A DNA stretch of 4,510 bases, taken from the IMG/VR virus record IMGVR_UViG_2737471843_000002, positions 1 through 4,510 of that record; one strand, written 5' to 3'. The stretch is from a virus. Its lineage: Duplodnaviria; Heunggongvirae; Uroviricota; Caudoviricetes. Positions 1 through 4,510 of the stretch are shown in pieces. The stretch's first letter is position 1. Every line of letters begins with the position of its first letter. The notes beneath the pieces are model-generated. The model did not search any database, had not been told where the DNA came from, and saw nothing but the letters and a program-made list of their open reading frames with translations. Position numbers and translations under genes: made by a program.

Positions 1-20
1 ATTGATGCGGAGGGCAGCGC

Positions 21-647
21 ATGAGCAACGCACCGACCATTAAATCGGGAAATGCCGACTTATTACACGCCGAAGCCACACCGCACGGCGTCAATATCAT
101 GACCCGCAATGATGCCGGGGGATATGAGCAGGTTGCTCTTATCAGCTACGAGAGCGCCGTGAACGGCCTTGACGCCGGAGAGTACGACGATAAGCCAGAT
201 ATCGGATACGCCATTCATTTTGCCGTTGCTGATGGCGGGGCGCGTGGCTGGTTCGACTTCACCGCGCAGCATAACGTCACTATGTGGCGCTGGCTGATTG
301 CTGCGACGTTCATTTCTGAGATGAAGCGCGAAAACGGCACAACCACGGTAACTGAGTCTGACGGCACTTCATCGCAGGTGGCGATTTACTCCAATGGCAC
401 GGCGGGGATTGTGGTTTACCCGTTCGCGGAACGTCTGGCGATGGCTAACAACATGGAGGGCGCAATGGTTGAGCGCTACGGCATTGAGCAGGGAACAGCG
501 AACGCCATTGTTTTTTATCAGGCCATGATCGACACGGAGCGCGGCGAGTTGACCCCGTTCGGGCGTGAAACGCTTGCTGAACTTCACAACAGCTTTATAG
601 CTGAACTGGATGAAAACGGCTGGCCTGAAATGCCGCTGGCGCACTGA
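21..647 (+). CDS. Hypothetical acidic protein, 208 aa, function unknown
   Basis: Complete ORF from the six-frame track. ATG at 21 is preceded by GGAGGG at 9-14 (6-nt spacer). The stop TGA at 645-647 is followed after 9 nt by the next start at 657. By my hand count the protein has about 29 Asp+Glu against about 11 Lys+Arg. No catalytic motif recognised. Confidence 0.7.
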   Translation: MSNAPTIKSGNADLLHAEATPHGVNIMTRNDAGGYEQVALISYESAVNGLDAGEYDDKPDIGYAIHFAVADGGARGWFDFTAQHNVTMWRWLIAATFISEMKRENGTTTVTESDGTSSQVAIYSNGTAGIVVYPFAERLAMANNMEGAMVERYGIEQGTANAIVFYQAMIDTERGELTPFGRETLAELHNSFIAELDENGWPEMPLAH

Positions 648-656
648 GGGGGCGAC

Positions 657-998
657 ATGATTACTAAAAATTTCCGACTTAATGCGCTGGCGAATAAGTA
701 TGCGTCGGCACTGTATAACCACATTACGGCTATCAATGGTGGCAATTACTTCATGGTTGACGCGGCAGGCCAGCAAATCCGTGTGGAAATCGTCAATGGA
801 GTAAAAGGCGTTCGCAGCCTGATCGATAGCTACACACTGGCAGCCATGAAAGTGTCCTACCCGCAGTGGGAAACCGTGGGGATAGAGCTTCTTGATCGTT
901 GCGTCACTAATGACGGATTGACTGACGTCGGGCGTGAGATATGGCAAAGCATGGTTAAAGACATGGGCGCGACCGTGGCAGGGGGCAACCATGCGTAA
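657..998 (+). CDS. Hypothetical protein, 113 aa, function unknown
   Basis: Complete ORF. ATG at 657 is preceded by GAGGGGG at 646-652. Its stop TAA at 996-998 overlaps the ATG at 991 of the primase-helicase (ATGCGTAA), indicating translational coupling. No recognisable motif. Confidence 0.7.
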   Translation: MITKNFRLNALANKYASALYNHITAINGGNYFMVDAAGQQIRVEIVNGVKGVRSLIDSYTLAAMKVSYPQWETVGIELLDRCVTNDGLTDVGREIWQSMVKDMGATVAGGNHA

Positions 999-3432
999 TA
1001 TCGACATTATCCGCGAAGTGACCAGTGCCGCCGCCGGGCGCTGGCCTTATGTGCTGGCTGGATTGTCTATCGACGTGCCTGATTCATCGCGCCGCCATTC
1101 TCCATGCCCTGCATGTGGTGGGAAAGACCGTTTCAGATTCGACGACAACGGGCGCGGTAGCTTTATCTGCAATCAGTGTGGCGCTGGTGACGGTTTAGAC
1201 CTGATTAAGAAGGTGAACAACTGCGACACCACAGAAGCGGCGAGGCTTGCCGCTGATGTGCTGGGTATTGATTACCGGGCAGCGCAAACCGACCCGGTGG
1301 CAGCGAGCCATAGAAGAGAGCAACTGGAAGCTGACCGCCAGCAGCGTGAGCAGGAGCGCCAGAAACAGGCAGCAGAGGATGCAGAGCAGCGAAGGGCTAC
1401 GTTTGCCCGTCTGTATGCCGGAATGCGCCAGAGTGCCACACAGGGCGAATCTGATTACCTGCAATCAAAAGGGCTGACCGGGTTTAAATATCCGGTAATG
1501 CCGGATGGTTCGTTATTGCTGGAGCTGGTGGACGAATCCGGCGCAGTGGCAGCAGCGCAAACCATTACACCGCAGGGAGAGAAGCGACTCCTGACAGGTT
1601 CAGCAAAGCGCGGGGCATATCACGCCGTTAACGCACCGGAACAGCCGCAGGCGGTGATTATTGCCGAGGGGCTGGCAACCACTTTATCAGTCCACCTGAT
1701 GCGCCCTGACGCGCTGACAGTGTGCGCCATTGATGCGGGCAACCTGCTACCCGTTGCCGAAGTGATGCGCCGGAAACACCCGCAGTCGCAAATTATCATT
1801 GCCGCAGATAACGACCACCAACAGGACGAACAGGCGAACACGGGCAAAGATGCCGCAGAGAAAGCCGCCTTATCCGTGGCTGGCTGGGTGGCGCTGCCGC
1901 CGACAGACTACAAAGCCGACTGGGACGACTACCGCCAGCAAAACGGGCTGGAAGTCGCTACGGCTGCGTTTAACGATTCGATGTACCAGATTCAGGGGGA
2001 AACCGTGAAACCACAACTACAGGCCATTGCGGGCGGTAAATCCCGCCGTAAAGCCGAAGTCGGAGATATTGCACAAATGGCAGCCAGCCAGAAAGCGCGG
2101 TTGCTTTCATCTCGATGGGATATGTTGGCGGTTAACCCTGATAGTGGCACTGTTTACTGCTACGAATCTGGCGTATGGGAGAAGCTACCAGACAGTGAAT
2201 TAGAAAGGGTTATGGTGGCAATTTTCGACGAGCACGAAGCCCACTACACCGAAAAGGGGATTAAATCGGTTGTCGCAACCATGAAGCTGCAAATACCGGT
2301 AATTGGTGAGCGGAGCGGGGATTTGATTGGTTTTGATAACGGCGTTTATGACCTCGCTACGCAGACGTTTTCCGCCCATTCGCCGGGTAACTGGCTGATG
2401 AACCACAATGGGATCACCTACACCCCGCCAGCGCCGGGGGAAAATATTACCACCAGCGCCCCCAATTTTACCAGTTGGCTGAATCATGCAACGGCTGGCG
2501 ACCATCATAAGGCCGAGCGTATCAAAGCAGCCTTGTTTATGGTGCTGGCGAAGCGTCACGACTGGCAGCTATTCATTGAGATAACTGGCGAGGGCGGCAG
2601 TGGAAAATCCGTATTCAGCAGCATAGCAACCACGCTGGCAGGTGAACACAACACCGCCAGCGGTAGCATGATGACGCTGGACACCGCACGGGGACGGGCG
2701 CAGTTCGTAGGAAAAAGCCTGATTATTATGCCTGACCAGACCCGCTATGTTGGAGAGGGTGCGGGGATTAAAGCCATTACGGGCGGCGATCCGGTAGAGA
2801 TTGATGGGAAATATGAAAAGCAGTTCACAACCGTGATAAATGCCGTTGTTATGGCAACCAATAACGAGCCGATGACATTCACGGAGCGAAACGGGGGCAT
2901 TGCCCGCCGCCGCGTGATATTCCCGTTTAATAACCCGGTATCAGACGCAGACAAAGACCCGGATTTAACAGCAAAAATCAGGCGAGAAATCCCGGTGATT
3001 ATCCGCCACCTGCTAACCACCTTTGCCGACCAGAACAAAGCAAAAGCACTATTACTAGAGCAGCGCGATTCGCAGGAGGCGCTAGAGGTTAAACGCGGCA
3101 CGGATCCGGTTGTCGATATGTGTGCGGCGCTTTTTTTCATGAACGAACCCAAAGGCATGATGATGGGCGGAGGTACATGGGCAGGCCAGCCAGAGCCGAG
3201 GACGTATCTTTATCATCTTTATCTGGCGTTTATGGAGTATCACGGTTTGGGTAAACCGCTTTCCGTCAATAAGTTTTCACGCGCCATAAAATCAGCAGCA
3301 AAAGAGTACCGAGCCAGCTACCTGACGAGAAGCATTAACGGCAGAGCGCAAACCAACGTTGGCTATAACGAGAAGGCTGAGGAGTTCATGCCCCGTGCTT
3401 ACGGTGTGGAGAGCGGGCAGAGTGATGATTGA
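991..3432 (+). CDS. Primase-helicase (Zn-ribbon + TOPRIM primase + SF3/D5-type helicase), P4 alpha-like replication initiator
   Basis: Long ORF; the track gives 934-3432 from a GTG, but I prefer ATG 991 (GGGGG at 981-985, overlap with the upstream stop), giving 814 aa. Cys4 motif CPACGG...CNQCG is encoded at 1105-1179. TOPRIM-like IIAEGLATT has its Glu at 1666-1668 and IIAADNDH its Asp-x-Asp at 1807-1815. Walker A GEGGSGKS is at 2587-2610, Walker B-like SLIIMPD has its Asp at 2734-2736, and SF3 motif C VVMATNN is at 2842-2865. A C-terminal region of about 190 aa follows the helicase core and is a candidate DNA-binding domain. Confidence 0.92.
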   Translation: MRNIDIIREVTSAAAGRWPYVLAGLSIDVPDSSRRHSPCPACGGKDRFRFDDNGRGSFICNQCGAGDGLDLIKKVNNCDTTEAARLAADVLGIDYRAAQTDPVAASHRREQLEADRQQREQERQKQAAEDAEQRRATFARLYAGMRQSATQGESDYLQSKGLTGFKYPVMPDGSLLLELVDESGAVAAAQTITPQGEKRLLTGSAKRGAYHAVNAPEQPQAVIIAEGLATTLSVHLMRPDALTVCAIDAGNLLPVAEVMRRKHPQSQIIIAADNDHQQDEQANTGKDAAEKAALSVAGWVALPPTDYKADWDDYRQQNGLEVATAAFNDSMYQIQGETVKPQLQAIAGGKSRRKAEVGDIAQMAASQKARLLSSRWDMLAVNPDSGTVYCYESGVWEKLPDSELERVMVAIFDEHEAHYTEKGIKSVVATMKLQIPVIGERSGDLIGFDNGVYDLATQTFSAHSPGNWLMNHNGITYTPPAPGENITTSAPNFTSWLNHATAGDHHKAERIKAALFMVLAKRHDWQLFIEITGEGGSGKSVFSSIATTLAGEHNTASGSMMTLDTARGRAQFVGKSLIIMPDQTRYVGEGAGIKAITGGDPVEIDGKYEKQFTTVINAVVMATNNEPMTFTERNGGIARRRVIFPFNNPVSDADKDPDLTAKIRREIPVIIRHLLTTFADQNKAKALLLEQRDSQEALEVKRGTDPVVDMCAALFFMNEPKGMMMGGGTWAGQPEPRTYLYHLYLAFMEYHGLGKPLSVNKFSRAIKSAAKEYRASYLTRSINGRAQTNVGYNEKAEEFMPRAYGVESGQSDD
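1105..1179 (+). other. Cys4 zinc-ribbon motif within the primase N-terminus
   Basis: Cys codons at 1105-1107, 1114-1116, 1168-1170 and 1177-1179 give CxxC-N17-CxxC. Confidence 0.75.
2587..2865 (+). other. SF3 helicase core (Walker A, Walker B, motif C) within the primase-helicase
   Basis: GEGGSGKS at 2587-2610; hydrophobic stretch plus Asp (SLIIMPD) at 2716-2736; ATNN at 2854-2865. The order and spacing are typical of SF3 (D5-like) helicases. Confidence 0.8.
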
Positions 3433-3450
3433 AACTTTTACGGCGGCACT

Positions 3451-3698
3451 TATCCCTACTGCCCTACTAAAAACGAGACGAGGCCAGACGTAGCAAGGCT
3501 TTAAACTAGGTAGGGATATATATTTTTATCCCTACTTATCCCTACATATCCCTACCAAATAAAACAGGCAGCAAAATGCCGTTGAAGTGATTTAGTAGGG
3601 ATAAGTAGGGTTATGTAGGGCAACAAAATTGAATGCCTACCAGTCTGAAAGCCTTGCCATTCGTGGCCTGAGCCAGTTAGTAGGGATTGGTAGGGATA
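3451..3698. repeat. Iteron array: about 11 copies of the 9-mer GTAGGGATA in both orientations
   Basis: Top-strand TATCCCTAC (reverse orientation) at 3451-3459, 3527-3535, 3537-3545 and 3547-3555, plus a degenerate copy at 3459-3467. Top-strand GTAGGGATA at 3510-3518, 3595-3603 and 3690-3698, with degenerate copies GTAGGGTTA at 3605-3613, GTAGGGCAA at 3615-3623 and GTAGGGATT at 3680-3688. Copies inside each block are spaced exactly 10 bp apart. Confidence 0.85.
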
Positions 3699-3703
3699 TT
3701 ACA

Positions 3704-3728
3704 CCCCCAAAAAGATTCTATGGGGGGG
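3704..3728. other. C5/G7 inverted repeat (possible stem-loop) including a G7 homopolymer tract
   Basis: CCCCC at 3704-3708 and GGGGGGG at 3722-3728 are separated by an A/T-rich loop. It lies 23 bp upstream of the ATG at 3751. No U-tract follows on either strand. Confidence 0.3.
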
Positions 3729-3750
3729 TAGCTTATAACGAAGGTGGGCA

Positions 3751-4053
3751 ATGAATACAGAAACCAGCCAGAAAATGACCTATCAGGAGCGTGAAGCATT
3801 GAAGGGGTTTACTGACAAACGCGCATTACAGGGCGACACCCAAAGCCTGCAAATGACCTTGAGGATGATCGCCCACTGGATGAGGCAGCCAGCAGAAATT
3901 GGATTTACAGAATATGCAACACACTGGACGGCAGCACAGGCCGGACGTGATGACGGGAATCACTCGACCGCAGCAATGGCGGAGCAGTGGCCTTTAAGGG
4001 AAGAAATGAAAATTATCCCCGGAGGTAGTGACTACATGAGGAAATATCTATGA
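3751..4053 (+). CDS. Hypothetical protein, 100 aa, function unknown
   Basis: Complete ORF. ATG at 3751 is preceded by AAGGTGGG at 3741-3748. Its stop TGA at 4051-4053 overlaps the ATG at 4050 of the SSB-like gene (ATGA), indicating translational coupling. An alternative start is the ATG at 3775. Confidence 0.6.
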   Translation: MNTETSQKMTYQEREALKGFTDKRALQGDTQSLQMTLRMIAHWMRQPAEIGFTEYATHWTAAQAGRDDGNHSTAAMAEQWPLREEMKIIPGGSDYMRKYL

Positions 4054-4510
4054 CAGCACAAATTTCAGCATACGGGCGGCTGGTGGCAGATCCCCAGACC
4101 CGTACCACAGCAAACGGTACAAGCATGGCAATGGGACGGTTAGCGGTGGCACTGCCCTGCCATGCAGCAGAGGGCGGAGAGGTTACTTTCTGGCTGGGCG
4201 TGGTGGCATTCGGCAAACAGGCCGACGCACTGGCAGGACACGTTAAAGGCGATTTAGTCAGTGTTGCCGGAGCGATGCAGATCAATCAGTGGACGGGCAA
4301 GGATGGCGGTACACAGCAAGGTTATCAGGTAGTAGCCGACAGCGTGATCAGCGCCAGAACGGTACGCCCCGGCGGGAAGCGGGCCGAATCAGTCAAAGCA
4401 AGCGGAGCCAGCAGGGGCCACACAACACAATCCGCGCCGGGATGGGAGTTATATAATACCCCTGATGATTTTGACCAACGCCCACCATTCGACGATGAAA
4501 CGCCATTCTG
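4050..4510 (+). CDS. Single-stranded DNA-binding protein-like (OB-fold) with acidic C-terminal tip; 3' end at the window edge
   Basis: Not in the ORF track because no stop falls inside the window. My manual translation from ATG 4050 (GAGG at 4038-4041, 8-nt spacer) gives MTAQISAYGRLVADPQTRTTANG...FWLGVVAFGKQADALAGHVKGDLVSVAGAMQINQWTGKDGGTQQGYQVVADSV...PPFDDETPF. Block-wise this resembles E. coli SSB ([60 protein letters not shown]; tip DDDIPF). The last two bases of the window are TG, so a TGA stop immediately after ...DDETPF is plausible. Confidence 0.85.
   Translation, partial: MTAQISAYGRLVADPQTRTTANGTSMAMGRLAVALPCHAAEGGEVTFWLGVVAFGKQADALAGHVKGDLVSVAGAMQINQWTGKDGGTQQGYQVVADSVISARTVRPGGKRAESVKASGASRGHTTQSAPGWELYNTPDDFDQRPPFDDETPF

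Follow-up and report, generated by a model that had tools for sequence, protein, structure and literature searches.

Why an integrated mobile element should carry its own SSB (single-stranded DNA-binding protein), and what the host-like acidic tip of that protein is for, are the questions raised by the ssb gene at the end of a 4,510-nt stretch of viral DNA (IMG/VR record IMGVR_UViG_2737471843_000002, positions 1 to 4,510; hereafter, the window). The gene was found in the replication module of an island of 12.2 kb, integrated at the tRNA-Thr gene thrW beside proA. We consider it likely that the product is an SSB serving the replication of this island, and the same confidence applies to the chain of events proposed below, taken as a whole.

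The ssb product is, with near certainty, a bacterial-type SSB. The Pfam SSB profile PF00436 matched residues 4-99 (54.7 bits, E = 1.1e-14), which is above the curated gathering cutoff of 26 bits by which membership in this OB-fold family is assigned, and the phage SSB family phrog_44 was matched with an E-value of 5.9e-30. RefSeq already gives the product this name. In a sequence search of the PDB, 26 distinct SSB chains were retrieved at E < 0.01, the best being SsbB and SsbA of Staphylococcus aureus (E = 2e-10), followed more weakly by E. coli SSB (E = 2e-5). A direct BLASTP comparison with the latter, using a sequence identical to PDB 1eqq_A over all 178 residues, gave 25% identity (E = 3e-9). 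None of the NCBIfam equivalog and subfamily models for host or plasmid SSBs reached its cutoff, the plasmid-type model NF010292 scoring only 20.5 bits. A reading of the window made from its letters (hereafter, the sequence-only reading) had described an element-encoded, divergent SSB-like protein, which agrees with these values, but its description of the OB core as compact did not hold. The Pfam profile was covered from position 3 to 101 of its 104, and the core has essentially its full length, three residues of a single loop being absent relative to E. coli SSB. It is the linker that is short (~35-40 vs. ~55 residues), which makes the whole protein short.

The predicted structure was in line with this assignment. 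The AlphaFold2 (AF2) model, for which 40 family members were used as input, showed a five-strand OB barrel (strands at residues 3-11, 16-19, 25-34, 46-54, 69-82 and 88-102) with a helix at residues 55-62. Block means of the predicted local distance difference test (pLDDT) ranged from 68 to 91 over residues 1-105, while values below 50 were obtained at 108-137 and 147-153. The best 50 Foldseek matches listed from the PDB were all bacterial SSBs, with template modelling (TM) scores of ~0.8 relative to the target. In E. coli SSB, the aromatic residues stacking on single-stranded DNA (ssDNA) are W40, W54, F60 and W88, as established from SSB-ssDNA structures. Three of these four (W54, F60 and W88, mature numbering) aligned with W48, F54 and W81 of the island protein, which were invariant in the 40 family members. 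An L-P-C motif at residues 35-37 (codons at ~4152-4160) was likewise invariant in all 40 aligned sequences.

The gene itself is complete. Its reading frame starts at an ATG (4050, + strand) and stays open through 153 codons to the last base of the window, its translation ending in ...DQRPPFDDETPF (likewise given as ...NTPDDFDQRPPFDDETPF). The final window bases, TG, were found to be part of a TGA directly after FDDETPF in the 100% identical chromosome of E. coli CP131_Sichuan (NZ_CP053720.1), where PGAP annotates a coding sequence of 462 nt (WP_045177224.1, 'single-stranded DNA-binding protein'). The stop that the sequence-only reading placed just beyond the window is thus confirmed and, since it directly follows the terminal Phe, the open reading frame (ORF) does not run past the acidic tip into another domain. 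The identity to this chromosome extends over positions 3700-4510. Among 5,426 complete genomes of E. coli, 121 contain this region, on the chromosome in every case. At the other end of the gene, the N-terminus and the start were conserved among relatives. The ssb start and the stop of the ORF before it overlap in an ATGA (4050-4053), which suggests co-transcription and translational coupling of the two. No promoter-like site was detected by a sigma-70 scan of positions 3400-4510, and no RNA family by an Rfam scan of the window.

The C-terminus (tail peptide, WELYNTPDDFDQRPPFDDETPF) has the architecture of an acidic-tip SSB, that is, a disordered linker followed by an acidic tip with a hydrophobic end. 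As the sequence-only reading had it, the tip at the extreme C-terminus resembles that of the host protein: it is complete, ends in PF and is followed by the stop, with FDDETPF identical to FDDDIPF of E. coli at five of seven positions. Its conservation was assessed in 35 intact orthologues, taking one genome per species. The terminal residue was F in 31 of them, and 30 had at least two acidic residues among the preceding six. Identity to the query, as a fraction of residues, amounted to 0.78 for the OB core and 0.74 for the segment DQRPPFDD, compared with 0.35 for the linker. Similarly, the proportion of nonsynonymous differences (pN, Nei-Gojobori) was 0.17 in the OB core, 0.49 in the linker and 0.26 in the tail. 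The proportion of synonymous differences (pS) ranged from 0.63 to 0.73 across the regions of the gene, so that synonymous sites are near saturation and, from the dN/dS attempted by region, solely the relative pN values are meaningful. Given that the tail is conserved and has a low pN while the linker does not, the tail is under selection; hence, purifying selection acts on both the OB core and the tail.

The origin of the tip was addressed through more distant relatives. The close family comprised 746 clusters at E < 1e-5, and those named were all from Enterobacterales; among the 120 members listed, 33 ended in DDETPF, other tails being DDEDPF, DDEAQF, P[FY]DDDF and DDSIPL. An exhaustive search of representative proteins returned 6,414 matches at E < 1e-3, 321 of them at E < 1e-10. 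The top matches included 103 proteins of roughly full length (36-66% identity), of which 65 had tails combining acidic and hydrophobic residues, typically PFDDxIPF or PFDDxLPF. Because a tail of the PFDDxxPF type ends most of these distant short SSBs, the tip is inherited, an ordinary ancestral C-terminal motif of SSBs kept by descent. Host mimicry or convergence was accordingly rejected, including the view of the sequence-only reading that the tip 'mimics' that of E. coli SSB. A recent capture of an enterobacterial ssb was also rejected, given the 25% identity to E. coli SSB and the greater closeness to Firmicute- and phage-type SSBs. Two orthologues differed in their ends. In Edwardsiella hoshinae the tail is PPFDDDIPF, an exact host-type tip (the iterons of this locus contain GTGTTCA), and in Budvicia aquatica 18 extra residues follow the FDD motif, so that the free C-terminal Phe is lost.

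A scan at the species level (one genome per species) yielded 40 loci from ~20 genera of Enterobacterales, two record titles naming organisms outside this order. In 35 of the 40 loci a primase homologue was encoded on the ssb strand, ~3 kb upstream of the gene. Most loci had an array of iterons within a few hundred bases upstream of ssb, while the genes downstream of it were not conserved. The SSB therefore shows conserved linkage to the primase-helicase and the iterons. The iteron words themselves varied among the related loci, with at least seven found besides GTAGGG (AGACAAC, GAACCAAC, CGGGTTA, GAACCGA, GTAGACA, AGGTAGA and GTGTTCA). The five loci without a primase match had an integrase beside ssb, a remnant of an AntA-DUF927 fusion or ssb pseudogenes; they resemble decayed or rearranged islands and were rejected as an alternative architecture. 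Truncated or frameshifted relatives of ssb were seen in six loci (L035 and L037-L041).

In the window, a P4-family primase-helicase and an iteron array lie upstream of ssb, in agreement with the sequence-only reading, which had placed a primase-helicase and an origin in the module. The primase-helicase scored 111.2 bits against TIGR01613 (cutoff, 108.7 bits), matched phrog_2249 with an E-value of 1e-149 and is the replication initiator of the island. Its longest ORF would start at a GTG at position 934 (832 aa, overlapping the upstream gene), compared with position 991 in RefSeq (813 aa). The iteron units, (T)ATCCCTAC and GTAGGGAT(A), occur in both orientations with a 10-bp phasing inside sub-clusters. 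All 11 copies of GTAGGG in the window fell between positions 3454 and 3695, against a chance expectation of 1.3, and none of 200 shuffles reached 11. Moreover, the array sits in a local dip in G+C content (0.40-0.44). It is probably the replication origin of the island. The ORF between this array and ssb had only weak family matches (DUF5551, E = 0.012; phrog_4935, E = 2.6e-4), and a homologue was present in only two of the 40 related loci, which points to a lineage-specific insertion outside the core of the module.

On this basis, we infer the ssDNA binding, oligomeric state, binding partners and replication role of the SSB. After induction and excision of the island, the primase-helicase would bind the GTAGGG iterons, open the origin, unwind the DNA and prime synthesis. 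The OB fold of the island SSB would then coat the exposed single strands, stacking on them through W48, F54 and W81, and the flexible tail (...PPFDDETPF) would dock on host replication proteins in the manner of the C-terminal DDDIPF of the host SSB. The most likely partner would be chi of DNA polymerase III (Pol III), followed by restart and repair factors, and the island primase-helicase might be another. A gene of its own would give the island a private supply of SSB while the helper phage, the host and the island compete for a limited host pool. In the case of P4, the alpha protein together with host SSB, the Pol III holoenzyme and gyrase suffices for replication in vitro.

Several observations weigh against such a role. 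The penultimate Pro of E. coli SSB is critical for partner binding (ssb-113), and this residue is missing in many family members (...DDDF, ...DDEAQF), the tail ...DDSIPL also occurring, so that what is conserved in the tail may serve a function other than docking on host partners. A relative of the island, the phage-inducible chromosomal island (PICI) EcCIMP1, is mobilised without an ssb; thus, an SSB of their own is not essential for such elements. In addition, the score against TIGR00621 (ssb) was 50.8 bits over residues 7-153, tail included, which is just below the cutoff of 53.95 bits and leaves the protein outside this subfamily as judged on its whole length. Finally, C37, an invariant Cys with adjoining His/Asn, occupies the position of E. 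coli W40, and E. coli H55 is replaced by an invariant Leu in the family. With these two replacements, the binding mode and tetramerisation may differ from those of E. coli SSB, and the Cys of the L-P-C motif and the invariant Leu may mark a somewhat different surface for DNA binding or oligomerisation.

Cognate pairing of an SSB with a helicase is known from T7, where gp2.5 acts with gp4/gp5, and the main partner of the tail could similarly be the island primase-helicase, with DQ[RT]PP[FY]DD as the specificity determinant. This is an unlikely alternative. In its favour, DQRPPFDD is the best-conserved part of the tail, whereas the final residues vary (ETPF, EDPF, EAQF, DF, SIPL); the gene is strictly linked to one primase family in the 35 loci mentioned above; EcCIMP1, with its DUF927-type primase, has no ssb; and the SSB tail of phage HK620 serves a phage-encoded partner (PMC5928155). 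However, tails like PFDDxxPF are general in distant SSBs for which a primase context of this kind is not known, and linkage alone is no proof of contact, docking on host and on island proteins being compatible. A broader version, in which primase-helicase, iterons and ssb form an exchangeable, self-contained cassette whose tail has been retuned to the cognate primase and/or titrates host SSB partners away from the helper, is rated as quite improbable; if true, the SSB would set replicon specificity or interfere with phages, beyond providing an extra housekeeping supply.

Other roles for the SSB are harder to reconcile with the locus. As an interference factor it would titrate host SSB partners or displace host or phage SSB, slowing the replication of helper phage or host to the benefit of the island, or it would modulate defence systems that sense foreign SSBs. 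The tip is host-like, the sequence-only reading had itself allowed that the protein might compete for host factors, and genes for phage interference are common in PICIs downstream of pri-rep (PMC6092414). Replication is nevertheless favoured by the location of ssb right behind the origin and by its being inherited together with the primase, no PADLOC match was obtained and nothing points directly to interference, while strong purifying selection on an OB core with its stacking residues is what a working SSB should show; interference is thus highly unlikely. There is only a very slim chance that the SSB is a recombination accessory stimulating a single-strand annealing protein, as HK620 SSB does with Sak4 (PMC5928155), for although ssb is followed by two uncharacterised ORFs, the neighbouring ORFs had no recombinase or annealase family match in Pfam or PHROGs, and apart from the primase and the iterons, which are constant, the surroundings of ssb differ from locus to locus. 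Scarcely credible is a decaying passenger without current function: a few relatives are truncated or frameshifted and five of the 40 loci resemble degraded islands, but most copies are intact across many genera, with a conserved start and a good Shine-Dalgarno sequence, and, against a pS of ~0.7, core (0.17) and tail (0.26) both have a low pN. A replication SSB of the island is hence the reading we prefer.

Compared with known SSBs, the island protein most resembles, in structure, the SSBs of Firmicutes. S. aureus SsbA and SsbB and Bacillus subtilis SsbA (5YYU, 5XGT and 6BHW/6BHX) were the closest structures, with 31-36% identity, a Foldseek E-value of 3e-9 and a TM score of ~0.8, although these are host proteins and the present one is island-borne. 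E. coli SSB (PDB 1EQQ/1EYG/4MZ9) shares the OB fold, with three stacking aromatics kept, the disordered linker and the acidic tip, but it has 178 aa instead of 153, and its linker of 55 residues is rich in Gly, Gln and Pro, while that of the island protein is basic and rich in Ser and Ala. Furthermore, it is essential and chromosomal, as opposed to accessory and island-borne. Its DDDIPF tip is a documented hub for chi, DnaG, PriA, ExoI and others (PMC5872125).

Among mobile elements, SsbF, encoded in the leading region of the F plasmid, is also an SSB copy beside the essential host gene; ssb mutants are complemented by it in part, and it is found at the same sites in the cell as host Ssb (PMC9849209). 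Nevertheless, plasmid SSBs are close homologues of the host protein that act at establishment after the transfer of ssDNA, whereas the island SSB is distant and linked to a primase and an origin. Phage SSBs (PHROG 44, with HK620 SSB as an example) have the phrog_44 profile in common with it, and the HK620 tail is host-like (NDYPPF), its last six residues being required to work with the phage partner Sak4 (PMC5928155). Unlike HK620 SSB, the island ssb has no annealase gene near it and no close relative in 50,697 phage records. Islands of the staphylococcal cassette chromosome (SCC) type are likewise integrative elements with their own SSB beside their own priming and helicase enzymes, and for the pairs of A-family polymerase and SSB in such elements the variable C-terminal tails of the SSBs were predicted to mediate pairing (PMC10061031). 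They differ in having PolA-derived primases, Cch helicases, Gram-positive hosts and other tails.

The closest comparison at the level of the whole element was the PICI EcCIMP1 from E. coli MP1, for which Kapi1 is the helper phage that brings about induction and transfer (PMC11773190). It occupies the same site, the tRNA-Thr gene beside proA. Three proteins have identical accessions in both islands (AlpA, WP_000035054.1; a 61-aa protein, WP_000188903.1; and pRiA4b ORF-3, WP_000284450.1), the AntA, DUF4222 and Ash/Icd genes are homologous, and the right-end genes are shared. On the other hand, EcCIMP1 lacks ssb and has a primase of the TOPRIM+DUF927 type as well as DNA-ejection genes like those of Kapi1, where the present island has the P4-family primase, the GTAGGG iteron origin and ssb. 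Different replication genes in otherwise similar islands indicate that the replication module has been exchanged.

Mobile-element SSBs with a conserved docking tail have long been known on plasmids and phages (PMC9849209, PMC5928155), and the ssb product is an uncharacterised member of this well-known kind that adds little to SSB biology. Its value lies in its context, a widespread enterobacterial lineage of AlpA-type satellites with an SSB of their own linked to a P4-family primase-helicase and a variable iteron origin. No paper mentioning an SSB was found in the literature on Gram-negative PICIs or satellites, and with its conserved primase-ori-ssb cassette the lineage adds a little to what is known of satellites. 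The island offers a simple system to ask why satellites need a private SSB and whether its tail talks to host or island proteins.

The features of the window and the domains of the SSB are collected below.

Table 1. Features of the replication module in the window and domains of the encoded SSB (positions in nt of the window, unless given as residues)
Feature	Position	Strand	Description	Basis
P4-family primase-helicase	991..3432	+	zinc ribbon, Toprim (Toprim_3), D5_N, DUF5906/SF3 helicase region	Pfam, RefSeq
Iteron array, putative origin	3448..3699	both orientations	between primase stop (3432) and ORF at 3751	
Hypothetical ORF WP_052322821.1	3751..4053	+	100 aa, between origin and ssb	
Shine-Dalgarno GAGGA of ssb	4038..4042	+	7 nt before ATG	read from sequence
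ssb gene of the island	4050..4510	+	153 aa (coding 4050-4508); final TGA base 1 nt past the window	
SSB, OB fold	residues 1-105			AF2, family conservation
SSB, linker	residues 106-138		variable, disordered	AF2, family conservation
SSB, acidic tail	residues 139-153		conserved, DFDQRPPFDDETPF	AF2, family conservation

As for the element that carries the module, its ends were recognized by the tRNA-Thr 3′ end (attL) and an imperfect direct copy of it (attR, TCCTATTATCG-CACCATT), at positions 7326-7350 and 19493-19513, respectively, of locus L001. In rightward order, the island encodes an integrase of the tyrosine type, AlpA (PF05930, E = 7e-20), one hypothetical protein, an antirepressor (AntA/AntB), DUF4222 and an Ash/Icd-like protein, followed by four small hypothetical ORFs, the primase-helicase, the 100-aa ORF, ssb, three hypothetical ORFs and PRiA4_ORF3. 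One hypothetical ORF at the right end lies on the opposite strand (18934-19293 of L001), and directly past attR follows, in tandem, a lambdoid prophage that has an integrase of its own. No structural or lysis genes were recognized among the island proteins with Pfam and PHROGs, and no packaging genes among the ORFs downstream of ssb with Pfam, PHROGs and PADLOC; PADLOC gave no defence-system match for the SSB and nine neighbouring hypothetical proteins. Gram-negative PICIs are defined as elements of ~10-15 kb that occupy a specific att site, lack structural and lysis genes and have int, alpA, pri-rep and then ori in rightward order (PMC6092414), and the island has this layout (Fillol-Salom 2018). 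PICIs are further marked by a packaging or interference module (terS, rpp, cpm) and by induction, packaging and high-frequency transfer that depend on a helper phage. The island is most likely a phage-satellite-like element of the PICI type. P4-like satellites, in contrast, are defined by alpha, epsilon, int and alpA plus the genes psu, delta and sid, which redirect capsid size. Of these, the island had int, a gene resembling alpA and a primase resembling alpha, and no ORF matching Psu, Delta or Sid was found in the RefSeq annotation or, for the ORFs other than DUF4222 and those of 59 and 87 aa, with Pfam and PHROGs.

Two other sources of the gene were considered and discarded. A megablast search of the whole window gave no match in the phage records mentioned above, and the best identity of the SSB to the same set by tblastn was 35%, mostly to Gram-positive phages, so that a known phage gene was rejected. 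In plasmids, only partial matches of ~80-88% identity were found; they correspond to related islands, deposited as small circles or lying inside a large plasmid, and the ssb of a conjugative plasmid was rejected as well. Of those circles, NZ_CP146545.1 (17,779 bp) is a related island deposited as a small non-mobilizable 'plasmid', while NZ_CP033626.1 (Klebsiella pneumoniae 'plasmid unnamed1', 22,859 bp, circular) is a related element with the same order of primase, hypothetical ORF and ssb. The latter has in addition PerC, a tape-measure gene and a gene for superinfection immunity, and its two ends repeat the same ~4.6 kb, an overlap left by the assembly of a circle or concatemer. The two deposits suggest excised episomal forms of related islands in the cultures sequenced, and the K. 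pneumoniae element is consistent with a replicating form.

Finally, two families of repeats were observed within the island. A 22-nt repeat, ATGGGGGTACTT(A/T)TGGGGGTAT, occurs inside each island end (7460-7481 and 19412-19433 of L001), the two copies being candidate arm-type sites of the integrase. Upstream of alpA, the 650 bp that separate it from int contain three copies of a 24-nt repeat, GCGCTGACAAAGCGCAATTGCTCT (8814-9116 of L001); two of the copies are identical and the third is 75% identical, and they may be regulatory binding sites for the induction of the island.

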